IMG/VR virus record: IMGVR_UViG_3300029288_000136
Origin: a virus
Taxonomy: Duplodnaviria; Heunggongvirae; Uroviricota; Caudoviricetes
Reading direction: 5' to 3' (one strand)
Length of the DNA: 64,000 bases
Shown here one piece after another: positions 45,552-64,000 of this stretch (position 1 is the first letter of the stretch; the number at the start of each line of letters is the position of its first letter). A program made the position numbers and the translations under genes. Below the pieces are notes generated by a model, which was not told the origin of the DNA, did no database searches, and saw only the letters and a program-made list of their open reading frames with translations.

Positions 45552-45622
45552 TGGAAGGGGTGGGATTCGAACCCACACTCATGGTATCACCCGCAACACA
45601 TCCATATTATATTATCCCTTCC
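45552..45622 (-). tRNA. tRNA-like gene B (71 nt)
   Basis: Perfect 7-bp acceptor (GGAAGGG / CCCTTCC) and perfect T-arm GTGGG-TTCGAAT-CCCAC. No canonical D or anticodon stems could be found by hand. Confidence 0.45.
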
Positions 45623-46127: not shown

Positions 46128-46324
46128 TGAACTGGAATTGCTACTGAGTTATATACTTTTCCTTCTCTGCACTTCTCCTGTTCTATGACATCTTCTCCAG
46201 GACCAACAGGGACTAAACATATTAGGTCACCCAATTTAAATAAGTGCTTGCATGCGGGGCATTCTTTTCCAATTATTGGAGAATTTTGTTTAAGCGGTCC
46301 GAACTTCCTTAATTCAGTAATCAT
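46088..46324 (-). CDS. zinc-ribbon-like protein
   Basis: CPACKH...C...C. Confidence 0.3.
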   Translation of the reverse strand: MITELRKFGPLKQNSPIIGKECPACKHLFKLGDLICLVPVGPGEDVIEQEKCREGKVYNSVAIPVHWTCATGKSNKED

Positions 46325-46540
46325 TTTGTTTTGTTTGATTTATATTTTTTCATAAGTATCTCAGTTATTTCACTACGTTCCTAATTGGTTAAATCCAAGA
46401 CTATCTCTATATCAACCATGAATCTATTGGTTGAATCTGAGATCTTACACATATATCTGCGTCCCTTGTATATAACATCGTAATAGGTTGCAGTCATGTC
46501 TCCTGTCTTGCGGATTGTATCTGACATTTTGATTTATTGA

Positions 46541-46726
46541 TTATTCTATGTCATCTAGGAAGGCTCTGACAGTTTTGATATTATTGTAGATGTGGGTTGA
46601 GGTATCCTGTCCAGAGGATTCCATCTCTTCCATATGTGTGCGTTCATCATCTTCCAAGTAGTCAAGTATGGTTCTCATCGAGGAGAGAACAGCATCGGTC
46701 AGTTCAGCCATTTTTATTCGATCCAA
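46541..46726 (-). CDS. hypothetical protein
   Basis: 61 aa, acidic. Confidence 0.25.
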   Translation of the reverse strand: MDRIKMAELTDAVLSSMRTILDYLEDDERTHMEEMESSGQDTSTHIYNNIKTVRAFLDDIE

Positions 46727-46729
46727 GTG

Positions 46730-47068
46730 TTATGGTTGGTTTATAACTTCCTTCTTTAATTTCTTCTTCAAGTAGTTGTAGAAGATTAAAGCGTTCTCAG
46801 GAGTTTGAACAAGATACCAGTTTACATAAGGTTTGTTTCTACTATTACACTTATTGATAGGACAGGAATAACAGCCTCCATTGTATTGATTGCAGTAGTA
46901 TTCGCAGAGGAAACATTCTGCCATGACAAAATCATCAGATATACCAATTGCAGTCCTAGCCATATACTTGTTTATTTCTGATGATAGGGTTGGGTCGCTA
47001 TGCTTGGATAACCATTCCCACGCCTTAAGACAATAAGAGTGGGCCTCTTCTTCAGTCAATGTTTTCAT
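46730..47068 (-). CDS. Cys-rich hypothetical protein
   Basis: CFLCEYYCNQYNGGCYSCPINKC. Confidence 0.35.
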   Translation of the reverse strand: MKTLTEEEAHSYCLKAWEWLSKHSDPTLSSEINKYMARTAIGISDDFVMAECFLCEYYCNQYNGGCYSCPINKCNSRNKPYVNWYLVQTPENALIFYNYLKKKLKKEVINQP

Positions 47069-47465
47069 TTGGTTTATCGTATTTCAATAAGAGTTCACAT
47101 AGGTCGGCTTTAAATAAGTGTTCATCAGAGGGTGAGAGCTTGATTCCAAGGTCCGTATAAAGCAGTAGAGTGATGGAGGTTGAGAGTTTGAGGAGGGAGT
47201 CATAGGGTGTAGCTGGAGGGGTTGTGGTTTGGTGGGTCAGGATGACTGCATAGGACTCTATCTTAGACAGTGTGTTGCGTTCTTTCTCCATTAGGAACCA
47301 GGTGTTCAACATGCGAAGGGAGTCGAATTGAAGCAATCGCTTGGAGAAATGGATGTCAAAGTCCTTATTAGACATAAGGCGTTCAGATGTTGGGGAAATC
47401 ATTGTAATCAGGTGAAGTCTCTGAGTTCGTCTTTGTTCATTGGTCGGGAGGCTCCACATATACAC
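47052..47465 (-). CDS. hypothetical protein
   Basis: 137 aa. Confidence 0.3.
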   Translation of the reverse strand: MYMWSLPTNEQRRTQRLHLITMISPTSERLMSNKDFDIHFSKRLLQFDSLRMLNTWFLMEKERNTLSKIESYAVILTHQTTTPPATPYDSLLKLSTSITLLLYTDLGIKLSPSDEHLFKADLCELLLKYDKPNENID

Positions 47466-48535
47466 GAGACAGTCATATCTACCATGTCGTAACAGCAGTA
47501 GTCGTGTTTCTTACAGGTTTTCTCCTCAGTGGATTTTTTCTTTGAGGAATTTAGTTCTGAATCCTTTGAGAAAGTCCTGAACCAGGACTCCTTTTCCTTA
47601 GCGACTTGGACTAGTTTGGCGGCTTCCTTCTTGATTGCTTTGATTATGCGGTTTGGAATTTTTCGTCCAAGATACTCATAGATAAAGATTTCCTGATCCC
47701 TGGTCTCAATGGCCTCCTTACAATAATGCTTTCTAACATAGTCGATTGGGTCTGTTTTCTTGGAGAGGTGGAGACCGCACCATATTGCTAGGACGGTTCC
47801 AGTGCGGCCGTGAGCTCCTTCACATGTGACCAATACTTTTCCAGTGGTGGTTCTCTCTTTTAAGTAGTCAATGATCACATCCATTTGTTCTTTGGTTGGG
47901 GGAGTGCGGTCCATGACATCAACGATTAATGGAGAGAAGTAGCGGGTGTCAAAGATGGGGTATTCTCTGAGGGTGTGGTTGTCAGTCATAACCCAACCTG
48001 AGAATTCCTTCAAGCGATCATAAGGTATTGTGTAGGACATCAGGCGGACTGGTTGTAGATTGAATAGCTTGGGGTGGCTGTGTTCAATGGTGTGGGAGCA
48101 AGTATCAAAGTTGTAATAAGTGTTTGAGTGGATACAAGCTGAGCCTTTGGTGTAGAGGCCGCCGCTCAATGTGGTTTGACCTCTCATCATAGCTTCCTCT
48201 TGTTCGAGCTTGTATTCTTCAAACATGTCGCGTTCTTCTTCTGATGAGGCGCATTGAGTTAGGTAGCCTTCACATGCCAAGACAATGCGCTCATAATCTT
48301 CTTCAGAGTGACATTCAAGAGCGCAATCACATCCAATGCAGTCTACAGGTGAGCCGCATATGTCAATGTCTGATATCATAGTAGAATCTACAAGTGGAAG
48401 GATACCATAATCCTTTGACTCCTTTTCGCTCACATCGTGGTCTGAGAATAAGGAGACAATGGCTTGGTTCTCATTGATGTCATCTGAGAAGTCTTCATTT
48501 GAGTTACGTCTGCTTGTGTGTTTGTTTCGTCCCAT
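47408..48535 (-). CDS. Cys-rich protein with dual-specificity/tyrosine phosphatase (CX5R) domain
   Basis: VLVTCEGAHGRTGTVLAIWCGL fits the HC-x5-R(S/T)G P-loop signature, with the TPPTKEQ region upstream. The N-terminal half is Cys-rich. Confidence 0.5.
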   Translation of the reverse strand: MGRNKHTSRRNSNEDFSDDINENQAIVSLFSDHDVSEKESKDYGILPLVDSTMISDIDICGSPVDCIGCDCALECHSEEDYERIVLACEGYLTQCASSEEERDMFEEYKLEQEEAMMRGQTTLSGGLYTKGSACIHSNTYYNFDTCSHTIEHSHPKLFNLQPVRLMSYTIPYDRLKEFSGWVMTDNHTLREYPIFDTRYFSPLIVDVMDRTPPTKEQMDVIIDYLKERTTTGKVLVTCEGAHGRTGTVLAIWCGLHLSKKTDPIDYVRKHYCKEAIETRDQEIFIYEYLGRKIPNRIIKAIKKEAAKLVQVAKEKESWFRTFSKDSELNSSKKKSTEEKTCKKHDYCCYDMVDMTVSCICGASRPMNKDELRDFT

Positions 48536-48990
48536 TTTTGAATCTTATTTAATGTATTTTAAAAAGTATGTTTAATTGGATAAGTGAGAATAAAACTCAA
48601 GAGAGTTTAAGCTCTTGAGTAAATACTGTTGTTGTTTCCGTTGTCGTGGTCGATCTATTGGCTGCCGTATCCGTAGGTTTTGTCAACTATTTCCTGAGCG
48701 TTTTCTCCCTTAGATATGTGGGTTACGGAGAGGACAGAAGGGGTTGCCTTTGATGTTCCCTGGGTGTATAGGAAGCGAACAGCTGAGTTCACTACTCCAA
48801 CACATAAGCCAACTGAGGTTACTTGTGATGCGTGGTTTCCTTGCTTCCAGGTAAAGGACTCAGGTAGCTCTCCTTTTACAGTTGTGGTCTGATCTGCAAG
48901 TTGTATGCGGACTCTTACTGCTTCTTCACTGATCGCTCTGATTCCAATTAATCCTTTGTTGTTTCTTCAGGTTCTGTTGGGGTGGTCATC

Positions 48991-49209
48991 TTAAGGTTTG
49001 TAACGCGGTTCGATTGTGGTTCCGAATCGTTTGAGTCTGCATAGGGAGTTGATTTGATTGATGCGGAATATAAGGGAACGTGCTTGTTTTACTGTCATGC
49101 CTTCGATTAACTGTCGTTCATGTTCCATGAGGCCGTCAGTGTTTACTGGTTGGTTGTCTGCTTCAAGTTCGCGTTGTCTCATCTGTTTGATTGCATCGGA
49201 GAAGGTCAT
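48991..49209 (-). CDS. hypothetical protein
   Basis: 72 aa. Confidence 0.3.
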   Translation of the reverse strand: MTFSDAIKQMRQRELEADNQPVNTDGLMEHERQLIEGMTVKQARSLIFRINQINSLCRLKRFGTTIEPRYKP

Positions 49210-49493
49210 TTTATTTTTTGTAGTCTGGAGAGCACTTGTATCTGAATAAATCTGGTTGGAATTGGGGGTTGTCTTTTTTGAAGACGAGGCAGAGAGCGTC
49301 CAGTTGTTGTTCTATGCTTCCAGTGCGGAAGGCTTTGGCTACCAGTTCGTAATCTTTGCGGCTTGTCATTTTGATTTGTTTAGTTTACGTAAGGCAAAGT
49401 ATCATCCAAGATATATTCCAAGGAAAGAGCCAAGGTATATTCCAAAGAAAAAGGCAAGTGACCATTGAATCAGTGTAATTTGTGCGATTTGAT

Positions 49494-49916
49494 TCATTTT
49501 TGTTTGTTTAATTTGATTCTATTGATTTTTTCTTCTTGTAACTCTGCAAGTATTGTTTTAAGGTAATCTACCTCTGATTGTATTAGTGATATCATATATG
49601 AGTCAGTTGGGTCTATTGTTGTTTGTAGTTTTCTTTTTCCTTCTAAAACGTATTTTGTGTGTATTTTGTCCCAAGGCGTATTTACACAATGTCCATCTCT
49701 TAAGCGTATTGGACAATATTCGCATTTAAAATTTACGAAGAATGTTAAGCATAAAGGGCATGTATCAGTGTAGATTTCAGGGGAGTATGGTTTTTTGGCA
49801 TTTGGCTTTAAGTTGTCTTTGATCCAGTGAGAGATGCTTTGCTTGGTTGCCTCGATTGCTTTGTTAAGGTCTTGGTCTGTGTGTGTTGTTGTGTATTTGG
49901 TTGTACTGATTGTCAT
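49494..49916 (-). CDS. Cys-rich hypothetical protein
   Basis: CPLCLTFFVNFKCEYCPIRLRDGHC. Confidence 0.35.
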   Translation of the reverse strand: MTISTTKYTTTHTDQDLNKAIEATKQSISHWIKDNLKPNAKKPYSPEIYTDTCPLCLTFFVNFKCEYCPIRLRDGHCVNTPWDKIHTKYVLEGKRKLQTTIDPTDSYMISLIQSEVDYLKTILAELQEEKINRIKLNKQK

Positions 49917-49926
49917 TTTTATTTGT

Positions 49927-50121
49927 TTATTTTGATTCGTTTAAGAGTGATCTTGCGTGTTGGATTATTTTGGTTGCGGATTGCTTGAGTATTCCTATTT
50001 CTTCAAAGTCAAGATATGTGGATTCTGAGACATCTTGGATTGAGTAGATTCCTTGGGAGTTTAGGGCTTTCTCAAGTTTTGGTCCGATTCCTGCTATTTC
50101 TTTTAGGTCGTATTCGTCCAT
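49927..50121 (-). CDS. helix-hairpin-helix DNA-binding mini-protein
   Basis: IAGIGPKLEKAL HhH motif. Confidence 0.4.
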   Translation of the reverse strand: MDEYDLKEIAGIGPKLEKALNSQGIYSIQDVSESTYLDFEEIGILKQSATKIIQHARSLLNESK

Positions 50122-50331
50122 TTTTGTTGTAACTTGATTTTATCTGGTTTTAAGATTAATTGTTTTTATAAAGGAATTGGCTTCGTGTTCGTAGTATATG
50201 AATTCGATTGATGATTCGATCAAGTAGTTTGATTAATTCATTCCATGTTTGTCGTAGTCGTAACAGGAGTGTCCATGTATGTCTAAATCTTGTTCATTCA
50301 TTATAGTATTTTAAGTGTTTGTGTGAATTGA

Positions 50332-50751
50332 TTAGAGGGGTTTGTATGAGCAGATGGGGTAGCGTCTGTCTGCTTTGGAGGTGTATGGTTTGAGGTTGTA
50401 GATGCGGCTTGGGGGCCTGGGTTCAAGGGGGTTGCGGTTTAGGTCTTTTTTCTTGCGTTTTAGGTAGTCTATTGCGTCTTCTTTTTGTGTTGAGTGGAAT
50501 TGTTTTAGGGTTTTGACTGTGGTGGGGGTTATGTGGAGTATTTGGTAGACTAGTTGGTTTGGGCGTAGTAGTAGGGGGAGGATTTTTAGTGAGTCGTTTA
50601 GGCCTAGGCGGTAGTAGCCGTTGAATTCGCCTTTTTTATCGTATGTTTCGATCCAGTTGGTTGAATGCTGGATTTGCGTTGTAAGTGGTTCGATTAATGG
50701 TGTGGTCATTGGTTCCTTTATTGGTTCCTGCTCTTTAATCAGTGTTTCCAT
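50332..50751 (-). CDS. hypothetical protein
   Basis: 139 aa, P/T-rich. Confidence 0.3.
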   Translation of the reverse strand: METLIKEQEPIKEPMTTPLIEPLTTQIQHSTNWIETYDKKGEFNGYYRLGLNDSLKILPLLLRPNQLVYQILHITPTTVKTLKQFHSTQKEDAIDYLKRKKKDLNRNPLEPRPPSRIYNLKPYTSKADRRYPICSYKPL

Positions 50752-50758
50752 GTTAGAT

Positions 50759-50956
50759 TTATCTTAATTTGCAGTACTCTTTGAATCTGGGTGTGTGTTT
50801 ATGAAGTAGTGAATCATATTTGGAGTATTTATCAGATAATGGGTGTTCATTGTCTCTTATTCCAACTAGGCGGTTATAGAGAGTCATGAAGTAATGTAAA
50901 CTTGCCTCACTTAAAGCATTGTCGTATTCTTTTAGTTCTTGTTCAAATGTTTCCAT
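50759..50956 (-). CDS. hypothetical protein
   Basis: 65 aa. Confidence 0.3.
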   Translation of the reverse strand: METFEQELKEYDNALSEASLHYFMTLYNRLVGIRDNEHPLSDKYSKYDSLLHKHTPRFKEYCKLR

Positions 50957-50962
50957 GTTAGA

Positions 50963-51178
50963 TTAAGGCTTTGTAATTGTTGCTCTTATGGTGTATGTTG
51001 ATTCGTCAAAGGTTCGTGTGTAGGTGTAGAGTTTCCATGTGCCTGGGAGGAAGCCAAGGCCTTTTAGGATTCTGTTGGCGGCTCCTTTGAGTGTTTTTAG
51101 ATCTCTGATGAAGATTCCGTTGTCAGAACCCAGTCCTGCTAGTTGTCCGTTTATGTGCCTTTCAGCAAAGTAGTTCAT
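50963..51178 (-). CDS. hypothetical protein
   Basis: 71 aa. Confidence 0.3.
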   Translation of the reverse strand: MNYFAERHINGQLAGLGSDNGIFIRDLKTLKGAANRILKGLGFLPGTWKLYTYTRTFDESTYTIRATITKP

Positions 51179-51542
51179 GTTAGAGGTTATTGCTTAGGAT
51201 ATATCTTGTGTATCTCATCTCATCATCTAACTGTTCATATACTGAGTTCTTGAATTGGTTGTCTTTGCTTGGGATTCTGTCTAATAGGATTGTTAAGGCA
51301 TTCATTATGGCTTCTTGATTCCTGAGTATCTGTTTGGGTGTTGGGTCCATGTTATGGTTTAGATGGTGATGAGTTTATTTGATTGATTAAATCCTTGCAG
51401 CCTTTAAGGATTGTTGACTTCTGTAGTTCTGATAGTTCTTGTGAGTCAATTGTTATTGTATTTTGTCCCTGGTATATGCAGGTTATTGTATTGTTTTTAT
51501 TTGTGTATTTGCCAAAAGTAATTGGGTCCATGTTAGAGTTTA

Positions 51543-51860
51543 TTATTGACTATTTTCTTGTAGTTTTTCAAGTATGGTGTCATCTGTGAAGGCTATCCGG
51601 GTTTTTAGGGCTTGGTCAGCTGGCGGGCCTGAGAAGATACGTTTGAAGGCGGATTCTTTAAGTACGACAAGGCGGCCTGTGTTGGGGTTTATTAGGAGGA
51701 TGCCTTCAGTTAAGTATTTGGTTTGGCATTCTTCGCATACTTGGGGTAGGGTTGAGTCTTTAGGAGGGAGTTCGTATTTAGTGTTTTTTCGTGCTATGAG
51801 GATTACTTCCCTGTGGCATATCATACAGTCTTTTACCAGTGTTGTTTCTCCAAGTTTCAT
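51543..51860 (-). CDS. zinc-ribbon protein
   Basis: CMICHREV...CEECQTKY. Confidence 0.35.
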   Translation of the reverse strand: MKLGETTLVKDCMICHREVILIARKNTKYELPPKDSTLPQVCEECQTKYLTEGILLINPNTGRLVVLKESAFKRIFSGPPADQALKTRIAFTDDTILEKLQENSQ

Positions 51861-52220
51861 TTTGTTTGGTTTATTTGTTATGTTAAGGTAATTGTGGGGA
51901 TAGTTTGGGGATAGTTGTTGGAAAGATGCGGGAAAGATTGACTCAAATTTGGGTAGGTACTCGGATTTGAGCAGGTACTCATTTTTGGGTAATTACTCAA
52001 AAGTGAGTAGGAAAAGTGTTAGAAAGTGGACTCACTTAATTCCAAGATAGGTGAGGACTTGGACATTAAGTGAGTGTAAGTGTAATAGGTATCAAGAGAA
52101 CCATATTGATGTATTTTAATATATCAATAAGGGTTTATTATTGGGTTTTTTCTTAAGTTTATTCAAATAAATTGAATAAAAGAAAAACAATAAATAAAAG
52201 AAGAATTTTTGTTCGTTTAT

Positions 52221-52742
52221 TCAAGAGAAGATTTCCTCAAAACCGGGGGAAAAGCGAAAAAGCTCTGAATGAGTTGATTTCAATAAACGAAGAGCAATTT
52301 CAGGAGAAACAAAGCCTTTATAATCGGTTTCATAGATTTCCTTAATGCGATTAATGTAAGCATGTTTTATTCCCTCTGACTCGATTTTACACTGGTTTTT
52401 CCAGTCAGGGTCGAGAGAAATGCTCTTGAATAGGTTTGATGTTGCTTTTTGGACAAGGGCTTCAAAAACTGCTCGGTCTTTTTGGAGGAGTAAAGCCATT
52501 TCAGGAGTTAAAGGAATTGTCATAGTGTTTATACCAATGCCTATGCGTATTTGTTTTTGACTTTCGATAAGTTCTTTATCGTAGGCGATTATTTGTTCAT
52601 AGGTTTTGTTGTCGTATTTTCTTTTACGGAAGTCATAGCGGCGCATATGACTTAATTTCTTTTCGTTCTCTTTCGTTCTTTCACTTGGTCCGGTCAAGAG
52701 GACTTTTCCTCTTGGATGGTTTCGTCTATCCATTGGTTTCAC
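52221..52742 (-). CDS. basic hypothetical protein
   Basis: 173 aa, K/R-rich N-terminus. Confidence 0.35.
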   Translation of the reverse strand: MKPMDRRNHPRGKVLLTGPSERTKENEKKLSHMRRYDFRKRKYDNKTYEQIIAYDKELIESQKQIRIGIGINTMTIPLTPEMALLLQKDRAVFEALVQKATSNLFKSISLDPDWKNQCKIESEGIKHAYINRIKEIYETDYKGFVSPEIALRLLKSTHSELFRFSPGFEEIFS

Positions 52743-52831
52743 CTTTTATTTTTAATTTTTTTTAATTTGTGAGAATGAATAGAAGAAGACCAAGTTCAGT
52801 TGACTTGGCTCTACAGATTCGATCAAGCCCT

Positions 52832-53245
52832 TTATTTCAGGGTTAATGCTCCCAGGACTTTTATCTGGGTTTCCGCCTGTCCACCGAGGTACTTGATACC
52901 GCTTAACCACTCGGTCGGATACTGCGTTGGATTTTCAAACGCAGCCAGAGCAGTCTTGTTCATTGCGTCTATTTGCTCCTCGGTGTAGACGATTCCCACT
53001 GCTGCTGATTGAGTCACTATTGACTTAACTTTGGCTAATGGGTCGCCTGTTTTTACGTCGCATACTCGTGCGACTTCGGTCAGCACTTTGACTGCTGCTG
53101 TCAGTTCTTCTTTGCTTATGCCGTGAAGTTCAATCTTTGTCGCAAGTGTTGCGGCTGGGATTGACTTCTTTTTCTCGTCTGTTTCTGTTGCCATTTTTCG
53201 CTCAATTAATTGAGAGGGAAATGGAGAGTTAATTATTTGGAACAA
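52832..53245 (-). CDS. hypothetical protein
   Basis: 137 aa. Confidence 0.35.
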   Translation of the reverse strand: MFQIINSPFPSQLIERKMATETDEKKKSIPAATLATKIELHGISKEELTAAVKVLTEVARVCDVKTGDPLAKVKSIVTQSAAVGIVYTEEQIDAMNKTALAAFENPTQYPTEWLSGIKYLGGQAETQIKVLGALTLK

Positions 53246-53284
53246 GTGTGAGTCGTCAATGTAGGCAGTGTGCCTCTATTGGAT

Positions 53285-53500
53285 TTATCTTCTGAGAATC
53301 AATCCGAGCAATCTGTCGGGGTCGAAGTCGGACATCTTTATCAGTTGCCTCTCGCTCATCCCTGTCATCATGGAGATTTCCTTAAGTGGGATCTTCGATG
53401 TGCTTCCATTGGCTTCCAGTACAAAGACAGGCTCCCTGCTTCTTGTTTTGATTGGCAGGTCGCTCACCCTTATCTGGATGCCCCTTGTTGTATAGGTCAT
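53285..53500 (-). CDS. HTH-like regulator candidate
   Basis: ISMMTGMSERQLIKM is an HTH-like segment. First gene of the minus block, next to the long non-coding region. Confidence 0.3.
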   Translation of the reverse strand: MTYTTRGIQIRVSDLPIKTRSREPVFVLEANGSTSKIPLKEISMMTGMSERQLIKMSDFDPDRLLGLILRR

Positions 53501-53913
53501 CCTTAAAGTCTGTTAAGTTGGATATATCTGAGAATTCCTTGGAGATTATCTTTATGAATCTTCTTATCATTCAGAATTTTCTGAATTAATTTATTCTTAT
53601 CTCCATGTCTTAGAAGTGTTATTAACACGTAGTCAGGGATGGATTCAAGATTTATTTCCATGTTCATATCAGTTCCACTATGTAGAACATTAATTGAATC
53701 AGTTTCATTTTATTTTTTTAGAATCATTGATTAAACATTTTTTGCATGTAACTGCTTTTTTTGTTCTTGAAGCATTATTTATTTCGTTAAGACTAAGCCC
53801 ACATGCTATTTTATTGTCTCCGATAATTAAGTGAATAAATTTGTTTTTCATTTTGAGTATACTTTAGGAATCAAGTCTCTTACATTGGGTACAGTCCATT
53901 TTTGAGAAGAAAA

Positions 53914-53939
53914 TGATTAACTCATTTTTGAGTTAATCA
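53914..53939. promoter_or_regulatory. perfect 11-bp inverted repeat with 4-nt spacer (operator- or terminator-like)
   Basis: TGATTAACTCA-TTTT-TGAGTTAATCA. A CATTTTTGAG direct repeat is also present. Confidence 0.4.
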
Positions 53940-53999
53940 AATTATGTGCATGTTTACTTCATACATCATCCATTCTGTGCCTGAGCATATCTGTATGTT

Positions 54000-54780
54000 G
54001 GCTATGTAAGCACAAGCATCCAAATATCTCTGAGCAAGTCGAGAGAATTCCATTGTTTAGTTCACCTTAAAACAGTTGCTTGGCGGCATAGTGATTGAAC
54101 ACACATGCCTTAACCAGCCCGTGCAGTCTTCCAATTAAGGCTTGACTGCACGCTGTGGTATTTAGAAGCAGCACCATGTTTACTCCTTTCACCATATTGG
54201 CTTATGGATGCCAACAGCTTTCCCGTTGAATGCAGAACAGCTGAATAAGTCAGCCCGATTCAAAGGTTATACTATGTGGCAGTGCTGCCCGTATGCCTGC
54301 ATTATTTAAATACTTGCCCGCTCTGCCTCCGACAGCCGACAGTCTAAACTGTAGTAGTCATGCGTCCTCCCCGTTTTTGCTATTATCTCCAATCTTCCAA
54401 GGACCGAGTAGTTACTGACTACATCACCCGGTTAGTTCCTTGACCGTCAAGGAGAGCAATTCGTAAGAGCCGACGCTCAAGAGTATAGAGCCTCAAGTTT
54501 GTTTTTTGCGCTTTGCGACACGAGAGCCAGGCTAACAGCTCCCGTTTTTTTGCTCAATCTCATACAACCTCTGAGATTGTCGCACCGCTCCCGCTATATG
54601 GGAGATTCGGAGTCACTCTTATAGGATACAGGATAACAGGTCGCTGCCCGCATTTCCTCCTATGATAACCATTAGACGATTAGGATATAAGAGCGATTAC
54701 GACCAATTTCCCAAACCAAAACCAGCACCCTGCGAATTCACAGAGCAAAAAGATTAGAAGGGGTAGTTACACTATTTTTT
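54000..54780. other. GC-richer, hairpin-rich non-coding region upstream of terL (candidate ncRNA or packaging/ori region)
   Basis: No ATG-initiated ORF of 60 aa or more in any frame, although base composition is more balanced than the flanks. Contains an 8-bp stem-loop CAATCTCA-n9-TGAGATTG at 54555-54579, among others. Confidence 0.35.
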
Positions 54781-54785
54781 CTCAG

Positions 54786-54836
54786 TCTGACCTTTGACTT
54801 TTTCTTATTCTGATCTTTGATTATTCTGACCTTTGG
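54786..54836. repeat. three iteron-like 12-bp repeats TCTGA(C/T)CTTTG(A/G)
   Basis: Copies at 54786, 54809 and 54825. Confidence 0.45.
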
Positions 54837-54945
54837 TAAAAATCGGACTCAAACATTAGAAGCATAAATACTTATACTCTCATAATTACACATTCCAAAC
54901 AATTAATCTTAACATATACTTAATCAACCAAAAATACAAACCACA

Positions 54946-55083
54946 ATGCTCACCAACATAAGAACCCAAATTAAAACAAACCCAGCAGAACCCAATCTCA
55001 TCTTTGATCCTATAACACTAATGACTCTACACTTATTATCAATAAACAAAACCAAATATTGCATCCATCAATCACAATGCTAA
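54946..55083 (+). CDS. upstream mini-ORF 1, paralogue of the terL N-terminus (45 aa)
   Basis: MLTNIRTQIKTNPAEPNLIFDPITLMTLHLLSINKTKYCIHQSQC. The stop TAA follows the next ATG within CAATGCTAA. Confidence 0.35.
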   Translation: MLTNIRTQIKTNPAEPNLIFDPITLMTLHLLSINKTKYCIHQSQC

Positions 55084-55211
55084 CAAACATAGACCTACAA
55101 ATCAAAACAAGCCTCACAACCTCAAACCACATCATTGATCCAATAACATCAAAGACCCCACACCATCTCCAAATAGATAAACCCAAATACAATTACCACC
55201 CACAATGCTAA
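55077..55211 (+). CDS. upstream mini-ORF 2, paralogue of the terL N-terminus (44 aa)
   Basis: MLTNIDLQIKTSLTTSNHIIDPITSKTPHHLQIDKPKYNYHPQC. Its first 11 residues are nearly identical to the TerL start, and its stop overlaps the terL ATG. Confidence 0.35.
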   Translation: MLTNIDLQIKTSLTTSNHIIDPITSKTPHHLQIDKPKYNYHPQC

Positions 55212-56749
55212 CCAATATCGACTTACAGATCAAGACCGGACTAACAACCTCAGACTTCATAATAAAAGGAGCCACAGACTTCAAATACTGGGCCGAAACC
55301 CTATACGACTACACAATCAAACCATACCACATCGAATGGGCCAACAACCTAACACAACAAACACGCTCCTCAACCATCGCAGCAAGAGGACTAGGCAAAT
55401 CACTCATACTAGGAACCCTAATGCCCATCTGGCTAAGCTTCTACGACTACACACCACAGACAACAAACCTAAAAGGAATAGTAATAGCAGCCCAAAACCT
55501 AAGCCAAAGCACTAAACTAATGATGAACATCCGAAACCACATCAACAAAACAGAACTAACACAACTACTCATACCAAAAACAGGAGACTACACCTGGACC
55601 AAAAAAGAAATAAACACCACAACCGACTGGAAAATAAACGTACTACCATACAGCGACAACGCAAGAGGACCACACGTCCCATACCTCCTAATGGAAGAAG
55701 CAGGTCTATTCACCGACCTAGAAATATACACAGACGTATTCCTACCAATGATCCAAAGAGCCAACGGCAACGCAATGTTATTAGGGACCCCAAAAACAGC
55801 ATACGACCTGCTAGCAAGAAGCCAAATACCCGGAAGCGGATACCAGATAAGCAAATACCCCCTAATCAAAAACGGAGAATGCATCCTACCAGAAATATTC
55901 CCCCCAGAACGAATACAACAAATACGAAAAGACATCGGAGAACTAAGCTTCGCAAGAGAATACCTACTCGAAATAGTAGGAGAAGGACGAGCAATAAAAA
56001 CACAACACATAATAGACAGCCTAGACCCAACAGAAACCTTCACCACACTAGGAACCGAAACAGGAGAATACTACATAGGAGCAGACCTAGCACTATCCCC
56101 CACAGGAGACTACACAGTACTAACAGTCATAGAACGCTACAATGGACGCTACCACATCCGCAAAATAGAAGAATACCGCGGCATGAGCTTCGACAACCAA
56201 ATAAACACCATAGCCACCCTATACAAACAATACAACCCCGTCACCCTACTAATAGACGAAAGCAACTTCGGAGGAATAGTAACCCAAAAACTACAAACAC
56301 AATACAACATACCAGCCCAAAGCATCAAATTCCTCCCAACCACCCGCAACACCATGCTCATAAGACTAATAAACACCTTCACATCAAACAAAATAACCAT
56401 ACCACGAAACCCCAACTGCCCCACCACCCTCACACTAACAGACCACCTACTAGACCAAATAAGCAGCCTACACAGCGACAAAACACGCAGCGGCCAAGAC
56501 ACCTACAAAGCATCAACAAAACACGATGATTCTTTAATGTCCCTAGCACTAGCCCTACACGCAGCAGGAGACACAGACAACTACCAAGAAACAGCCATAC
56601 TAACAGCCAAACCACCAACAAACCAAACACAACAAAACAAGATAATACAAGACAACTACTATGAAACAATACAAAAAATGAGACAAAAACCAATAAAAGA
56701 AACCAAAGAATACGGATCAGCCTTCAACAAATGGCTACCACACAACTAA
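55205..56749 (+). CDS. terL: terminase large subunit
   Basis: Deviant Walker A AARGLGKS, Walker B LLMEEAG. C-terminal nuclease-domain acidic motifs are IGADLALSP, LLIDESNFGG and KHDDSLMSLALALH. 514 aa, immediately upstream of the portal candidate. Confidence 0.8.
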   Translation: MLTNIDLQIKTGLTTSDFIIKGATDFKYWAETLYDYTIKPYHIEWANNLTQQTRSSTIAARGLGKSLILGTLMPIWLSFYDYTPQTTNLKGIVIAAQNLSQSTKLMMNIRNHINKTELTQLLIPKTGDYTWTKKEINTTTDWKINVLPYSDNARGPHVPYLLMEEAGLFTDLEIYTDVFLPMIQRANGNAMLLGTPKTAYDLLARSQIPGSGYQISKYPLIKNGECILPEIFPPERIQQIRKDIGELSFAREYLLEIVGEGRAIKTQHIIDSLDPTETFTTLGTETGEYYIGADLALSPTGDYTVLTVIERYNGRYHIRKIEEYRGMSFDNQINTIATLYKQYNPVTLLIDESNFGGIVTQKLQTQYNIPAQSIKFLPTTRNTMLIRLINTFTSNKITIPRNPNCPTTLTLTDHLLDQISSLHSDKTRSGQDTYKASTKHDDSLMSLALALHAAGDTDNYQETAILTAKPPTNQTQQNKIIQDNYYETIQKMRQKPIKETKEYGSAFNKWLPHN

Positions 56750-57474
56750 AACACCAAACTAATCAAGCCACACAATCAACTGACACAATCAACTGACACA
56801 ATCAACTGACACAACTAACAGAGACAACTAACAGAGACAAACAAACCAAAAAACCAACCAAGACAACACAAGTAAACAAAGACAACCAAACACACAACAT
56901 ACCAATATGAATAAGCAAAGACAACTAACACAACTAACAGAAACAACACAACCAAACCACGCAACTAAGCAGACAAAGATAACTAAACCAAACAACAAAC
57001 TAACACAACCAAAACAAGACAACTAAAACAAGACAACTAAACCAAGACAATTAGATCATACAATAAAACCATACAACCAAACCAAGACAGATAAACTAAA
57101 AAAACTAACTAACTCAACTGTTAAGAATCAAAACAACTAACAGAGATAACATAACCAAATCACACAATTAATCAAAATAACTAAACAACACAATTAGATC
57201 ATACAACTAAACCATACAACTAACTAACACAACAAACCAAATAAAACAAATCAAAAACAACCAAACACAAACCAATCAGAAAAATTTAATATAAATACTA
57301 CAATACATATACAACTAATATATACCATACAAAACTAATTAATAAAAAACCAAATAAACAAGCACTAAAACAAACAGATATCAAAACAAATAAATACAAA
57401 AACAAATAAAAACCAAATTAATAAAAAACAAGACTAAAAAACAACAATAACATACAATCAATAAATATTACAAG
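56750..57474. repeat. A/C-rich low-complexity spacer with tandem repeats
   Basis: Plus strand is almost entirely A and C. CACAATCAACTGA x3 (56771-56809), CAACTAACAGAGA x2, ACAAGACAACTAAA x2, and ACAATTAGATCATACAA at both 57051 and 57191. Confidence 0.6.
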
Positions 57475-58893
57475 ATGACAACACCAAATCAAAAAACAAA
57501 AACCCAAAGAAGATCACAACCAATATCAACACACACACAAAACATACAAAACACCGGATTCCAAGGAATAATACCCACACTGCAAAAATTCATGTACGGA
57601 GAACAAAAAACAGACAACACCCCCGAACCGGAAATAGGAAACAAAGGATACAGCACCGGACTAACACTAAACAGGGCAAGCAAAGCAGACCTGGAAGCAC
57701 TATACATAAGCGACCCAGTAATATTCAACGGAATAAACACCTACTACAAAACAATCCTCTCAAACCCCCCAACCCTGACAAACGGATCGGAAAAAGACCA
57801 AAAAAAACTAGACCAATTCAGCAAACAAATAAAACTACAAAGAAGCATAATACCAAGCATAACCCAACACAGCCTCATATACGGAACCGCGTGGAATGAA
57901 AAAATCTACAACAAAGCCCCCAGAGGAAACATCCTACACAAAATACTCGGAATACCCACAAGAGACCCCAAACTAATGGACTTCCTAAGACACCAAAACA
58001 CCAACTACATAAGATTCAACGAAGTAGGAGAACCGGAAGGATACTGCCAATACATAGCTGACGGAATACACTACGAAGGAACCGACACCATAATAAACGG
58101 AACAAACAGCCTAAAAGCCATACCCTTCACCCCAAACAAAATAATGTGGACCAACTACATAGCAGTAGGAGACACCTATGAAGGAATAGGCCTGGTCGAA
58201 CCAATACTAAACAGCTCACTAGACAAAAACAACGCCCAAAAAGGATTCAGCGCATACATCTACCGACTAGGACACGGACTACTAGGCATCAAAGCAGGAA
58301 ACGAAAGATTCATACCCTCAACCGACATGATACACAAAGCCATACAGATCTTCAGCAACATAAACACCGAAACAGTAGTCTCCTACCCCTACTACCTACA
58401 ACCCGAAATGATCGAACCCAAAAGAGGAATAGAACGACTAAGAGAACAAGTAGACTACTTCATAGACCAACAAATAGCCGGAATCGGTTTGCCAGCATGC
58501 TTAGTAACAGGCCAAGGAACTTCTATGAACCGCAGCATCCTGGACAAAATGATGATGCTATTCTACCAAAGCCTCACCATGATCCAAAACAACATATCTA
58601 TAAGCATAGAAGACAACCTATCCCAAGAACTAATGGACATATACGGACTAGACAACCCCCCAAGACTAGAATGGCCCGACATAAACATAGAAAGCATGGA
58701 CAGCAAAGCAAACAGGCTAAGCACATACGCAAAAGCAGGCCTGCTAGGAGCCACCCCAATGCTGCAGACATACATACGACACTCAGAACACCTACCCCAA
58801 GAAGGAGACAACACGCCCAACACGCCAGACACCCAATCAAACGAAGACCAGGAGAACCACAAATCAAAGCTGGATTCAATCCTCGACTTCTAA
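57475..58893 (+). CDS. portal protein candidate
   Basis: 472-aa ORF directly after terL in head-module order. Size and position only, no motif checked. Confidence 0.5.
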   Translation: MTTPNQKTKTQRRSQPISTHTQNIQNTGFQGIIPTLQKFMYGEQKTDNTPEPEIGNKGYSTGLTLNRASKADLEALYISDPVIFNGINTYYKTILSNPPTLTNGSEKDQKKLDQFSKQIKLQRSIIPSITQHSLIYGTAWNEKIYNKAPRGNILHKILGIPTRDPKLMDFLRHQNTNYIRFNEVGEPEGYCQYIADGIHYEGTDTIINGTNSLKAIPFTPNKIMWTNYIAVGDTYEGIGLVEPILNSSLDKNNAQKGFSAYIYRLGHGLLGIKAGNERFIPSTDMIHKAIQIFSNINTETVVSYPYYLQPEMIEPKRGIERLREQVDYFIDQQIAGIGLPACLVTGQGTSMNRSILDKMMMLFYQSLTMIQNNISISIEDNLSQELMDIYGLDNPPRLEWPDINIESMDSKANRLSTYAKAGLLGATPMLQTYIRHSEHLPQEGDNTPNTPDTQSNEDQENHKSKLDSILDF

Positions 58894-58907
58894 ACCACAT
58901 AAAAAAG

Positions 58908-61094
58908 ATGCCAAACCCCCAAACTAACACCAAACCACCACATGAAAACAATGAGAAAATAGCGGAGTTGGTTCACTCCAACTCCGAAATAGGCTCGTCA
59001 GGATCCTCACCAACATCTTCCCCCGATTCCTCCGTCTCGGAAGCATCCTCGACTACGGAACCTCGCTCAGACTCGGCTTCATATCCTTCCTCGTTACAGG
59101 GATTGGTTCACGCCAATCCCACGTTACCTACGGAGTCGGTCTCTAAGACCTCCTCGACGTTACAATTACAAGATGAATCATCTGTGAATGTTACATCAGA
59201 CGTTACATTACGAGAACAAATAGCCAATCAATCCCATACTCAATGGTCTAAATGGATGGAATATCTATTCAATGAATCAAATCAATTAGAAGATGGAACA
59301 GTAAGCATCCCACCAACTAAAGTAAGCAGATGGAAGAGACAAATAGTTACAGATTACAAAGACTTAACTATAGAAGAGCAGAATAGTGACTTAAAAGAAG
59401 CAGATATCTACATACAAATCTTTAATTCATACTTACATAATTCCAAAGAGACCTTAGATAATGCAGAGTTAGTTCAATCCAACTCTGAAATGAATGAATC
59501 AAGTGAAAAACCACTGAATAAAGAAGAAAAGAACGCTCCGACCAACTGCGAACTAATGAAGCCATTCACCCCAATGCAGATGACAAACAAACAAATGAAC
59601 ATAGAAGACATCAATTACTACTTCAACGACAAATACTCAGAGAAATACATGCTATTCAACCAAACAAACAAAGGAACACACATATTCCTACATAAAGGAA
59701 GCAGATGGAACGGTTCAACAGTAAAGATATACAACGACAACAAAGAAGAGATAACTGACAGATACCCAGACATAGTATACCAAGCACCTGAACTGACAGA
59801 TTACTCCATAATAGTGGAAGGAATAATAGAAAACAATGGAACACTAGACTCTGGAACTCTAAATGGAACACCAAAAGGAACAGTAAACTCTGGAACACAG
59901 AATGAAACACTAAATGAAACACTAAATGGAACACTACAACTATACGACATACTATACTACGACCAACCGATGAACAGATCACAGCTGATAGAAAGACTAA
60001 GAGTATTATTCATGAATATAAAAGACACTGAAAACATAAAGAAGAACAGACCAATACCTGAGAAAAACATCAAACACATGATCAAACTAGCTAAAAAGAT
60101 GGGAACAGGCATAATAAGACACCTAGACTCAGCCTACCATATCAATGAACATGGAAACGACAAAGGATTCCAACTCTCAGACACTTCTGCAGCCTCCTCC
60201 ACTAACACTGATACAATATATAATAATATACATACAATAGGCAACAACACTTCTACAATACTAAAAGAGATATCAGACAAATTACCACAAACATTCATAT
60301 CAGAATTAAGCAAAGCAAAAGACAACTGGATACCATTCACACTATCAAAGCATTACAGAGGACACAAAGAAGGAAATAATATAATAATGAATAGCGTACA
60401 CCAGGATCTAAGATTCAACATCCCCAATTCAACAAACGTACAAGCAATAACGATACTAACACCAGGAAACAATGAAAATCAGGACCTACTAACAATAGGG
60501 GAAGCAGCTAGAAATGGAAAGATAAGATTCCTGGTAAAAGAACCAGAACCAATACAAAGCACAAAACCAACATACTACCAAGAGAATAACCCAGGAGCCA
60601 CAACAGTACCTGGATTCAGCATAGTAGTAGCAGAAGGCCAATACACGCTCCTGGAATCAACAGATACCAAGCTACATATCGAATTAAACTGCATAGAGTC
60701 CTCATCCAGTGAAGGAGAGCATACAGTAAGAAAAAACAAGGAAGTCATAGATAAAGCGCTGGAAGCAGGGATCAAAGTAGACGAAATAGACTGGAGTACT
60801 TTAAAAGACATATCAGGGGTGTGGAGCCTAAGCGAAGCGCATATGACAGACACTACAATACTACTTATGAGGCTTCTAAACAGGGGAACAGCAAGATTAC
60901 TTGAAAAAGTAGACAAAACATGGATGGAACAAGTCAAAAAAGGACACATACACAAGACCGGAGTAAACAAGGAAAAACTATACAAAATAGCCCTTATGAG
61001 CGAAGAAGGATACTACAGACCAGAGATAGCCAAAGAGATAGGAACAAACAAGGACACAGTATACAGATGGCAGAAAGCATTAGGATACTACTAA
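58908..61094 (+). CDS. large head-module protein with Ser-rich linker and C-terminal HTH
   Basis: Start set at the first ATG after the portal stop, because the tracked ORF start at 58497 lies in an alternative frame of portal. GC-rich Ser/Thr/Pro linker (SSGSSPTSSPDSSVSEASSTTEP). C-terminal EIAKEIGTNKDTVYRWQKALGY is HTH-like. Confidence 0.45.
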   Translation: MPNPQTNTKPPHENNEKIAELVHSNSEIGSSGSSPTSSPDSSVSEASSTTEPRSDSASYPSSLQGLVHANPTLPTESVSKTSSTLQLQDESSVNVTSDVTLREQIANQSHTQWSKWMEYLFNESNQLEDGTVSIPPTKVSRWKRQIVTDYKDLTIEEQNSDLKEADIYIQIFNSYLHNSKETLDNAELVQSNSEMNESSEKPLNKEEKNAPTNCELMKPFTPMQMTNKQMNIEDINYYFNDKYSEKYMLFNQTNKGTHIFLHKGSRWNGSTVKIYNDNKEEITDRYPDIVYQAPELTDYSIIVEGIIENNGTLDSGTLNGTPKGTVNSGTQNETLNETLNGTLQLYDILYYDQPMNRSQLIERLRVLFMNIKDTENIKKNRPIPEKNIKHMIKLAKKMGTGIIRHLDSAYHINEHGNDKGFQLSDTSAASSTNTDTIYNNIHTIGNNTSTILKEISDKLPQTFISELSKAKDNWIPFTLSKHYRGHKEGNNIIMNSVHQDLRFNIPNSTNVQAITILTPGNNENQDLLTIGEAARNGKIRFLVKEPEPIQSTKPTYYQENNPGATTVPGFSIVVAEGQYTLLESTDTKLHIELNCIESSSSEGEHTVRKNKEVIDKALEAGIKVDEIDWSTLKDISGVWSLSEAHMTDTTILLMRLLNRGTARLLEKVDKTWMEQVKKGHIHKTGVNKEKLYKIALMSEEGYYRPEIAKEIGTNKDTVYRWQKALGYY

Positions 61095-61372
61095 AAGTTG
61101 TCACTAATCTAAGTGAGAAAAATAGAGACAAAAAACCAGATAAACAACACACAACAAACCAAACACAATAAATTACAAACACAATACATTATAAACACAA
61201 CATATCCCAAACACAATACATTGAGAACACAATATATTAATATGGTTATAATAAATGATGTATTGATTTCTAATATACAATTCCAAATATACAACACCAT
61301 ATCAAATATACTCAATAAATATAAGCAAAAATATAAGTAAATAATCAGATTAAGAATACAAACAAGAAAAGA

Positions 61373-62524
61373 ATGCCAATACCCTCTGAGATACTCAAAA
61401 CAGAAGAAGACATACAAGAAATAAGAGTACAAGACATGATACTCCCATACAAGCTAAAAGACAGAATACTCTTCAGCCCAGGAGTACACAACCAATCAAT
61501 ATACACAGGAGACGTAATAGTTGACTCCTTCTACAACACCCAATGGAATGACAGAACCCTATCAATATACCTGGACCACAAAGACGAATTCACAACAGAC
61601 CCAGACACCGGCAGAAAGACAAAACATGTAGGAGCAGAAGTATCAGACTACGCAGGATACGTCAAAAACCTAAGATGCGACAAAGGACACATAAAAGGAG
61701 ACCTACACTTCACAGACCTAAACACCGCACTAAAAGTAAAACTAGGAGCACACTTCGGAATAAGCCCCAGAGGAGACAGCTACATGATAGGAAACAAAGT
61801 AAAAAAGATGCTAATAGAAAACTGGAGCATAGTAGTAAACCCAGCTATCAAGACAACATACCTAAACTTCGCGATGTGTGAAAAAACAGAAGAAGAAATA
61901 TTCACACAAAAAATAGAAGAAAACAACGACAAAGAAAACACAATAAAAAACAAATCAAAAGAACCAAGACCAATAACAGATCAAAAAATACAAATAGACG
62001 GATCAATAAAAAAACAAGAGGAAAAAACAATGACAGACGAAACTGTAAACAAAGAAGGAAACGAAAACACAAGCAAAAACGAAGCAGACAAAATAATCAC
62101 ACTAGGAGAAAAAGTAAACAAACTAGAGACAACCATGACCAAAGTAGCCAACATGATGGAAGAAGAACTAGCCTGTAAAAAGAAAAAACTAGAAGAAGAA
62201 ACAAAAGAAAAACAAACAATACAAGCACAAAAAGAAGAAGAGAATAGGAAAATACAAGAAATAGAAGCCAAAAAACAAGAAACAAAAGAAAAAGAAATGG
62301 CCGAAAAACAACTAAAAGAAGAAATAGAGACAGCAAAGATGAAAGAAATAGAAGAACTAAAAACACAAATAAAACTACTAAGAGAAGCAATAGACAAACC
62401 TGAAATAGAATCGATCAAAGACAAAGGAATAAGAGGAGCACCCTTTATAGAATCAGATACGATGAGCCTAGGAGACATGGACGAAGGAATGCTCGAATAC
62501 CTAAAAAAAGAAATAGTAATATAA
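61373..62524 (+). CDS. scaffolding-like protein (N-terminal globular part plus long E/K-rich coiled coil)
   Basis: The C-terminal 200 aa are an extremely charged helical KEEE-type repeat. Position between portal and capsid. Confidence 0.45.
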   Translation: MPIPSEILKTEEDIQEIRVQDMILPYKLKDRILFSPGVHNQSIYTGDVIVDSFYNTQWNDRTLSIYLDHKDEFTTDPDTGRKTKHVGAEVSDYAGYVKNLRCDKGHIKGDLHFTDLNTALKVKLGAHFGISPRGDSYMIGNKVKKMLIENWSIVVNPAIKTTYLNFAMCEKTEEEIFTQKIEENNDKENTIKNKSKEPRPITDQKIQIDGSIKKQEEKTMTDETVNKEGNENTSKNEADKIITLGEKVNKLETTMTKVANMMEEELACKKKKLEEETKEKQTIQAQKEEENRKIQEIEAKKQETKEKEMAEKQLKEEIETAKMKEIEELKTQIKLLREAIDKPEIESIKDKGIRGAPFIESDTMSLGDMDEGMLEYLKKEIVI

Positions 62525-62582
62525 GAACAAAACACCAAGAATAAAAACAAAAAAAAACAATAAACAAAAAAAAAGAGAAAAG

Positions 62583-62624
<42 letters not shown>

Positions 62625-62673
62625 TAAGAATAAAAAAAATAAATAAAAACAAACAGGTAAAAAAAAAAACAAG

Positions 62674-63876
62674 ATGGCAAACAACGCACCCGGAGAAGGA
62701 AGAAGCATATTTGAACTGGACCTAAAACCAGCCAAACACGCCCTAGGAGGAACATGGAAAACATTTGAACTAGCATCAGCGGTAACCCAACAATCAACAA
62801 CTAGAGGAACCGCCCTATCAACCAAATACATGCTCCTACCAGTAGCATGGGCAAAGGCTGCAATGGACGCAGCCAAAGAAAACATGAGATTCGTGGAAAC
62901 ATGCAAACAAGAACTCATGAAAGAAGGACAAAGCACCTATGTAATACCCAAAAGGACTAAATACATGGCTGACGGAGACTGGGAAGCCTCAGCGGAAGAA
63001 TACACCACAGCAAACACAGAGATGCTATGGACCGACATAACCACCCCTGACGGAGTAGAGTTCACCCCGACAGAATACAACTATGGAGTGGCCATAACAG
63101 ACAAAAACGTGAGAACCAACGCATTAAACATAGTACAATTCTGCAGAGAAGAACTACAATACAAACTGGAAAACCACCAAGACAACCTCGTAAGAAACGC
63201 CCTACTAGGAGTATCCAACTCAGTAGAAGCAACAGTGACCACGGCAGCGGGACCGGTAGCTATGAGCAACTCAGTAAACGGGGCAACCAACCTAATGGGA
63301 GGAGACGCTACAATGGCAGACCTATCCCTGGTAGACGGAGACATCCTAACAACCGAGCTGATGAAGAAAGCAGTAAGACACATGACCTCAGACAAAGGAT
63401 ACTACTGGAGTAATACGACCACACACACACCATCAGCGGTGACAAAGAACGCATGGGAACCAACAGCGTCAGAACCCCTGGTATGGTATATAGCGCCTGA
63501 GAACCGAACCCAACTACAAGACGACTCCCAGTTCATGAGCGCAGCCGAATACGGAAGCGACAAAGTACTGCTAAAAGGAGAAATAGGGGAATTCATAGGA
63601 ACCAAGATCATATGCACCACAAAGGTTACCAAATTCGTAGCAAACGACTACATATGGATGGATGGAACCATAAACCCCACCGTAAACTGCTCAGGAAGAC
63701 AAGTATCACTGCAGAAATCAGGAAAAGCGATGGGTCTAGTATACGGAGCCAAACCAACAATAGAAGTGTTCAGAGAACCATCCTACAGACAAGTAAGGAT
63801 GTGCCTGAACATGGCAGCACAAGCCAAACCCATCTACGACGACGCAATAGTAAAGATATGCGTGTCAGATGTGTAA
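62674..63876 (+). CDS. major capsid protein candidate (HK97-fold expected)
   Basis: 400-aa ORF after the scaffold-like gene in canonical order. Followed by a T14 run. No motif verified. Confidence 0.45.
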   Translation: MANNAPGEGRSIFELDLKPAKHALGGTWKTFELASAVTQQSTTRGTALSTKYMLLPVAWAKAAMDAAKENMRFVETCKQELMKEGQSTYVIPKRTKYMADGDWEASAEEYTTANTEMLWTDITTPDGVEFTPTEYNYGVAITDKNVRTNALNIVQFCREELQYKLENHQDNLVRNALLGVSNSVEATVTTAAGPVAMSNSVNGATNLMGGDATMADLSLVDGDILTTELMKKAVRHMTSDKGYYWSNTTTHTPSAVTKNAWEPTASEPLVWYIAPENRTQLQDDSQFMSAAEYGSDKVLLKGEIGEFIGTKIICTTKVTKFVANDYIWMDGTINPTVNCSGRQVSLQKSGKAMGLVYGAKPTIEVFREPSYRQVRMCLNMAAQAKPIYDDAIVKICVSDV

Positions 63877-63902
63877 AAAACGCAGACAAAACAACCAATC
63901 TA

Positions 63903-63916
63903 TTTTTTTTTTTTTT
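63903..63916 (+). terminator. T14 run downstream of capsid gene (oligo-T terminator candidate)
   Basis: 14 consecutive T, 27 nt after the stop codon. Confidence 0.4.
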
Positions 63917-64000
63917 ATTATATAATTGATGAATAGCGGCAAAAACAAGAGAGAAAAAGCCGACAAACATACGATAACCAATAAAACAAACTAAAAAACG

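Follow-up and report, generated by a model that had tools for sequence, protein, structure and literature searches.

We found that the gene for the large terminase subunit (terL) of this phage is preceded by a tandem repeat array, which had been pointed out in an initial annotation and is confirmed here as real. The array is composed of two full units and the genuine gene start (Table 1). We favour, with moderate confidence, the explanation that the terL start was duplicated in tandem long ago, specifically in this lineage, and that the copies are now decaying and their two upstream open reading frames (uORF1 and uORF2) tolerated. In the literature, we found neither a precedent for the array nor an account of this phage group.

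The window, by which we refer to the whole stretch of 64,000 nucleotides that was analysed, is part of an 84.9-kb metagenomic contig and reads as a phage genome throughout. The contig is listed as 'Candidatus Paceibacterota bacterium' in NCBI, a label that comes from a MAG, with the host being assigned by binning only. With regard to the domain of the host, Pfam matches on the large ORFs were uninformative, as was tblastn against isolated phages, in which identities of 23-24% to Bacteroides phages were observed. The gene content of the contig includes, besides TerL and a Mu-type portal, a Laminin_G_3 tail-fibre-like protein, a PD-(D/E)XK nuclease, a MoxR-type AAA_5 ATPase with a VWA protein, and an SPFH/flotillin protein. 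Leftward genes form a long module that comes to its end near 53500-53850, and terL is the first long gene of a rightward, A/C-rich late module. The strand composition of this late module (55000-64000 and 1-6600, plus-strand genes) is extreme, with the AT skew reaching a maximum of about +0.61 to +0.68 and the GC skew a minimum of -0.49; near terL the coding strand consists of approximately 44% A, 30% C, 15% T and 12% G. As a result of this composition, long spurious ORFs emerge in several frames.

Table 1. Positions in the window of the repeat units, reading frames and neighbouring elements around the start of terL.
Feature	Position	Strand	Remark
Three direct repeats, (G/T)TCTGA(C/T)CTTTG(A/G)	54785-54836	+	Two copies in L006
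Promoter-like block, AGCATAAATACTTATACTCT, and -10-like hexamer CATAAT (54881-54886)	54861-54886	+	Conserved with L006
Spacer, absent from L006	54887-54941 (55 nt)	+	Without significant similarity to heads, tails or the rest of the window
Unit 1 (U1), degenerate copy of the terL start, oldest-looking	54942-55072	+	Local alignment to U2
U1 head	54942-55005	+	Copy of the terL start
U1 tail	55006-55072	+	Resembles the U2 tail only
Unit 2 (U2), degenerate copy of the terL start	55073-55200	+	Alignments to U1 and terL
Genuine terL start, part demonstrably homologous to U1 and U2	55201-55288	+	ATG-4 to about codon 28
uORF1, 45 codons and TAA, MLTNIRTQIKT...	54946-55083	+	Stop inside the ATGCTAA of U2
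uORF2, 44 codons and TAA, MLTNIDLQIKT...	55077-55211	+	Stop inside the ATGCTAA of terL
terL, large terminase subunit, 514 aa	55205-56749	+	Terminase_6C 5e-11, phrog_38 2e-25
Mu-type portal gene	57475-58893	+	Downstream of terL

Units of the repeat array

The sequence CACAATGCT(C/A)AC is found at 54942, 55073 and 55201, at spacings of 131 and 128 nt, and the search for it returned these three plus-strand matches in the array and one unrelated match, against 0.29 expected. The local alignment of U1 to U2 scores 44 (z = 16) and that of U2 to the terL start (U3) scores 36 (z = 13), in comparison to 11-12 +/- 2 for shuffled sequences, and both exceed the scores of all 3000 same-strand, A/C-rich control segments, the maximum of which is 28. 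The alignment of U1 to U3 alone is weak (z = 2). When compared to the single-copy terL start of L006, the nearest relative with available DNA, both the first 64 nt of U1 (z = 8.2) and the head of U2 (z = 8.8) show clear similarity.

The similarity of the units to terL is significant from 4 nt before the ATG (ATG-4) to codon 20, the part that we term the head, and over this part U2 and terL are 75-78% identical. After codon 20, U1 and U2 have in common a 4-nt deletion relative to terL. Past the deletion, U2 and terL retain a collinear stretch of 20 nt with 14/20 matches (P = 0.0016), and the tails of U1 and U2 (last ~40 nt) resemble each other (z = 6). The tails did not match terL codons 21-47 of either phage (z about 1 or less; 0.9 for the U1 tail against terL), and we did not find another source for them elsewhere in the window. 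The initial annotation had described three copies of the terL 5' end of about 130 bp each; upon closer examination the head-to-tail repeat stands, with the z values of 16 and 13 given above, whereas the third unit is not a full copy of this length, its terL homology extending only from ATG-4 to about codon 28. Additionally, the start of U2, which had been given as ACCAAC, reads ACAAAC.

Among each other the copies are 22-35% diverged and they are only 65-67% identical over their full length, which explains why the array was missed by TRF. We also observe that L001, an independent assembly of the same phage, is base-for-base identical across 45205-56769, the array included, its only departures being one copy of a 13-nt repeat at 56770 and an A-rich tract near 62580. 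Given this divergence of the copies and the agreement of the second assembly, the array is not an assembly artefact. Artefact is one branch of an explanation that we regard as extremely improbable, the other branch being a fusion of the uORFs to TerL through programmed -1 frameshifting, for which the evidence is given with the reading frames below.

Three further candidates were rejected. A fourth, more degenerate unit in 54896-54941 is not found, as this segment has z values of -0.5 to 0.8 against the heads and tails. The ACACAAT motif of the late-region repeats occurs 12 times against 4.3 expected, a count that comes from tandem copies and does not constitute independent evidence. Finally, the complementarity between 54077-54098 and the start of U2 (77% over 22 nt) belongs to a set of 22 comparable pairs at chance level.

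Copy number in relatives and divergence of the copies

A scan of metagenomes provided a single useful locus, the 1086-nt contig L006, in which the 209 nt at the end code for TerL residues 1-69, 87% identical to those here. Its positions 24-565 align with 54101-54613 of the window at 68% identity, and positions 739-799 with 54735-54795 at 84% identity. In L006 there is one terL start, 4 nt past the block AGCATAAATACTTCTACTCTTAATATTAC, and a near-identical block is found in the window at 54861-54890, where it is followed by the 55-nt unmatched spacer, U1 and U2. In the more distant L002, L004, L007 and L008 there is likewise a single terL start each, with no upstream repeat of the start (TerL identity 42% for L002 and L004, 39% for L008, and 48% over half its length for the intein-containing TerL of L007). 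The intein of L007 lies in the TerL homologue P0004 (871 aa, 4001-6616) and carries a LAGLIDADG endonuclease domain. The closest full-length TerL homologue, P0002, is 81% identical, and upstream of its terL there is a gene-free gap of 1069 nt. No match to the array was obtained by blastn against 50,697 phage records, and TerL-based scans of viral and genome contig collections found nothing.

Copy number therefore varies among relatives, with one copy in L006 and in the four distant relatives as opposed to three here, which is the comparison that the initial annotation had proposed, and the array is specific to this lineage. Among close relatives this comparison is made at one locus, L006, which we count as a point against a decaying duplication. 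The uORF arrangement is not conserved either, since uORF paralogues are absent from all five loci (L006, L002, L004, L007 and L008).

Upstream of the array, the region shared with relatives contains further elements. A bipartite motif, AATTCACA-N21-GGTAGTYACAC, precedes terL in the window (54735-54775), in L006 (739-780) and in L007 (about 3275-3315), the TerL of which is only 48% identical, and is partially present in L002 (about 4215-4250). It is followed by short direct repeats that vary from phage to phage, namely TCTGACCTTTGA in three copies in the window and a 27-nt unit in three copies in L002, and the region has the appearance of a control region common to the family. The three direct repeats of Table 1 are situated in this control region, where the leftward and rightward modules diverge, and may represent an operator or another binding site.

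These elements bear on the suggestion that the 130-bp units constitute a terminase-bound packaging-recognition repeat, pac or cos-like. Known packaging sites that lie by terminase genes, such as the R sites of lambda cosB and the pac sites of P22, SPP1 or P1, are short protein-binding motifs conserved among relatives. What the array has in common with them is that a repeated sequence is placed at the start of the terminase region, and its location at the beginning of the terminase gene and the head of the late module is the one argument for such a role; no terS was recognised near terL by family matches, and the small ORFs 5' of terL in L002, L007 and L008 had no family matches and are not callable as terS. 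In contrast to packaging sites, the units are degenerate gene fragments of 130 nt that are absent from the nearest relative, in which the sequence is single-copy in spite of a TerL that is 87% identical. Furthermore, their divergence looks like that of unconstrained DNA, the best-conserved part being precisely the coding start, and the short TCTGACCTTTGA repeats and the conserved upstream blocks are better candidates for protein binding. We therefore consider the packaging repeat highly improbable, and the initial annotation is not upheld on this point.

Next, we examined the divergence of the copies, for which the comparison of U1 with U2 is free of the constraint on terL. U1 and U2 have 45 differences, spread 14:14:17 by codon position and equally frequent in the head (21/60) and the tail (24/72). 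The uORF frame has a pN/pS ratio of 0.5, compared to 0.7 for the two remaining frames, and in a placement test the synonymous excess is nominally significant (P = 0.015), which is a point against simple decay. Peptide-level constraint between U1 and U2 is weak or absent, and when set against each other the two copies look unconstrained. Between U2 and terL there are 15 differences, of which 10 are at third positions (P = 0.0085), with pN of 0.10 and pS of 0.76; uORF2 retains 17/20 of the first residues of TerL, and uORF1 has lost half of these.

The similarity of uORF2 to TerL raises the question of micropeptides, sharing the first 11-20 residues of TerL and acting as mimics that would, for example, compete for a partner of the TerL N-terminus. 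The retained residues, the mostly synonymous differences and the conservation of an MLTN N-terminus across the TerL family are compatible with such a role. However, the pN/pS contrast originates largely from the constraint on terL itself and from shared ancestry, half of the residues are lost in uORF1, the tails are frameshifted and look unconstrained, no such peptide is found in the relatives or in the protein collection, and there is no known partner, so that we regard micropeptides as very unlikely.

When the private changes in the heads are polarised with L006, we observe eight in U1, one in U2 and three in terL, those of terL being all synonymous, as expected from the constraint on terL itself. 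The informative sites are in conflict, with seven grouping U1 with U2 and six grouping U2 with terL in a mosaic, and at three of the seven U1-U2 sites the change is non-synonymous and replaces the conserved G12, D17 and F18. Together with the shared 4-nt deletion, the mosaic suggests that a first duplication was followed by the duplication of an already degenerate copy. Afterwards, either gene conversion placed short patches of terL in U2 or U2 has been under real constraint, the data for this choice being 60 sites and one outgroup.

Several of these observations count against a decaying duplication. The U2 head, with a single private change, needs gene conversion or constraint; the three copies all have an unaltered CACAATGCT start context; both uORFs retain MLTNI..QIKT, their changes being mostly at third positions; and the copies persist at about 30% divergence, with both unit lengths still being 2 mod 3. 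The fossil starts may have been recruited, either as a uORF relay setting TerL dosage or as peptides mimicking the TerL N-terminus. We judge recruitment to be unlikely, and what keeps it in consideration is the near-frozen U2 head, the intact start contexts and the preserved 2-mod-3 lengths.

Upstream reading frames and the terL leader

The initial annotation read the first two units as ORFs of 44-45 codons that end at a TAA within the next ATGCTAA, and the coordinates agree with this. The motif ATGCTAA is found at 55077-55083 and 55205-55211, with the TAA beginning 1 nt past the ATG codon, and from uORF1 to uORF2 to terL the frame changes by a step of -1 each. The third copy holds the genuine TerL N-terminus, as had also been proposed, because MLTN is conserved at the start of the homologues (39-81% identity). 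As a consequence of the 4-nt deletion shared by U1 and U2, the rest of each uORF consists of terL-derived bases out of frame, and past residue 20 the uORF peptides are out-of-frame readings and not TerL paralogues. In a collection of 15 billion proteins, neither the uORF1 nor the uORF2 peptide was called by any pipeline. On this strand, which is poor in T and G, 43 stop-free codons are expected by chance with p about 0.13, and 10/49 of the ATG ORFs on it have at least 44 codons; the open frames of the uORFs consequently carry no weight.

The successive -1 steps of the frames are what programmed -1 frameshifting would call for. Nevertheless, the last codons of uORF1 and uORF2 contain no in-frame slippery heptamer X XXY YYZ, the leader has no stimulatory structure, and the TerL homologues start at MLTN, which together argue against such a fusion.

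The embedded TAA derives from the Leu-Thr codons of TerL itself (ATG CTA AC). In L002 and L004 the terL start is ATGYTAAC, and the TAA is present without an upstream ORF. In L008 (61-180 and 174), an unrelated ORF of 39 aa ends at the TAA inside the ATGTTAA of terL. This overlap indicates that coupling of terL to an upstream ORF may be a habit of the family, which is a further point against plain decay.

The promoter-like block upstream of the array is unique in the window. Its counterpart in L006 has the hexamer TAATAT, ending 7 nt before the terL ATG, and in L002 TATAATTAC is found upstream of terL. The block, which was not called by a sigma-70 scan, is a putative promoter, and transcription of terL would start near 54893. 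With such a start, terL of L006 would be nearly leaderless, and here the gene would have a leader of approximately 310 nt containing both uORFs. A 376-nt leader segment (54885-55260) is essentially unstructured (MFE -12.9 kcal/mol, z = -0.11), and no plus-strand terminator-like site was found in 54900-55300. terL, the portal gene and the genes at 61373, 62674, 84 and 4647 are without a well-placed Shine-Dalgarno motif and lie behind A-rich leaders; among the other rightward genes examined, that at 2764 has such a motif and that at 5969 only a distal one. Since the leader is unstructured and Shine-Dalgarno motifs are lacking, the three start sites are equivalent.

The initial annotation had also proposed a translational attenuator. 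Leader-peptide attenuators of the trpL, ermCL or tnaC type resemble the array in having short ORFs in the leader of a gene. They differ from it in that here there are no alternative hairpins or terminator, no evident regulatory codons and no conservation of the uORFs, which are absent from the relatives. With a leader devoid of structure (z = -0.1) and weak or absent peptide constraint, we do not retain the attenuator.

The geometry of the junctions resembles that of termination-reinitiation coupling, which takes place at ATGA or TAATG junctions in bacterial and phage operons, and in which a stop 1 nt past the next ATG favours restart. The array shares with these junctions the upstream stop within ATGCTAA, 1 nt past the downstream ATG, the lack of a Shine-Dalgarno motif and the unstructured RNA, and L008 displays the overlap with an ordinary upstream gene. 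In contrast to usual coupling, the upstream ORFs are here paralogous fossils of the downstream gene, and both their translation and the coupling are predictions. The stop-start overlap would couple translation if the leader is transcribed.

Such coupling could have been co-opted, with the duplication serving as a translational relay or throttle in which reinitiation at ATGCTAA would set the supply of ribosomes to terL, and selection would keep the ATGs, the open frames and the 2-mod-3 length. The stop-on-start overlap at both junctions, the three identical start contexts and the unstructured, A/C-rich leader are in line with this proposal, and so are the nearly unchanged head of U2 (one private change against eight in U1), the weak synonymous excess in the uORF frame and the case of L008, where an unrelated upstream ORF is coupled to terL by way of this embedded TAA. 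On the other hand, the closest relative and four others make TerL without these uORFs, the 14:14:17 spread between U1 and U2 is the neutral prediction, the TAA is a consequence of the TerL Leu-Thr codons and is found in L002 and L004 without an upstream ORF, and the open frames are expected by chance (p = 0.13). In our assessment a selected relay is conceivable and rather doubtful.

Surrounding elements and origin of the array

To the left of the array, we observe an ORF-free stretch of ~0.85 kb (53905-54800) that is conserved with L006 (1-805) in blocks parted by indels that are not multiples of three. Its predicted folding on the minus strand has an energy of -281.8 kcal/mol (z = -4.4), with z = -3.7 on the plus strand, so that the minus strand is favoured, and there is a terminator-like hairpin on the minus strand at 53939-53914. 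The consensus with L006 contains 165 pairs, of which 28 have both sides changed yet remain paired; slid controls, in which the partners were moved by 1-3 columns, have 0-2 double-changed pairs, a contrast that is inflated by the structure being derived from the same two sequences. No Rfam family matched at E up to 1, and nothing similar was found in the viral or genome collections or in the more distant relatives. The stretch is a candidate, from two sequences, for a novel structured RNA or for a long structured leader of the leftward genes, and this conserved, structured candidate RNA is more unusual than the terL array.

To the right, the 726-nt spacer between terL and the portal gene (56750-57474) contains no credible ORF and is occupied by tandem repeats, rich in A and C, whose periods are 13, 14, 26 and 58 nt. 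In L001, the run of the 13-nt unit, ACACAATCAACTG, is shorter by one copy (at 56770). Other late genes are likewise preceded by spacers filled with repeats (61160-61239, 62543-62675 and 4503-4573), and in the A-rich tract 62543-62675 several substitutions and small indels separate the assemblies at 62575-62621, which probably reflect noise from sequencing or assembly, or else true heterogeneity of a homopolymer-like region.

The genome is slippage-prone, with late-module spacers full of tandem repeats and a 13-nt copy that differs between assemblies. Together with the single copy in five relatives and the diverged, frameshifted upstream copies, this supports the replication-slippage fossil, which was among the proposals of the initial annotation. 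In the decaying duplication that we favour, a segment of ~130 bp, beginning 4 nt before the terL ATG, would have undergone tandem duplication in this lineage, probably twice in succession, through slipped-strand mispairing or unequal recombination. The upstream copies would be non-essential pseudo-starts, presumably lacking a selected function, that have been decaying since, with their ATGs kept by descent. Because the unit length is 2 mod 3, each upstream frame meets the TAA of codons 2-3 (CTA-AC) in the next copy. If the mRNA starts near 54893, ribosomes would start at all three identical, unstructured sites that lack a Shine-Dalgarno motif, and termination 1 nt past the next ATG would hand them on, by which TerL output would be preserved and the duplication tolerated. 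A duplication of 2-mod-3 unit length would thus be harmless by virtue of its stop/start geometry, and the coupling may still be useful.

Partial-gene tandem duplication by slipped-strand mispairing or unequal recombination leaves decaying 5' gene fragments, and the array shares several of the characteristics of such duplications. The copies are head-to-tail and their number differs between close relatives, divergence is greater the farther a copy lies from the functional one, the non-functional copies have indels in common, and other tandem repeats with copy-number polymorphism are present in the same genome. Unlike in a plain partial-gene duplication, the unit holds the start codon with its context, which makes each fossil a potential translation start, and its length sets the stop of each fossil on the next start.

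For annotation, these findings warn against placing the TerL start at the first MLTN-encoding ATG (54946), which is not the genuine one. If the fossil starts were recruited, regulation would have been built from the gene's own duplicated start, in a Shine-Dalgarno-less and formerly near-leaderless gene, and a functional relay, if real, would show one way in which the 5' end of the terminase gene itself can give rise to translational control of terminase in phages. As a duplication fossil, the array is an example of a partial-gene duplication that makes upstream ORFs without destroying expression, which would survive because the frame offset puts each stop on the next start. Overall, the array marks this phage lineage as slippage-prone in its late module.
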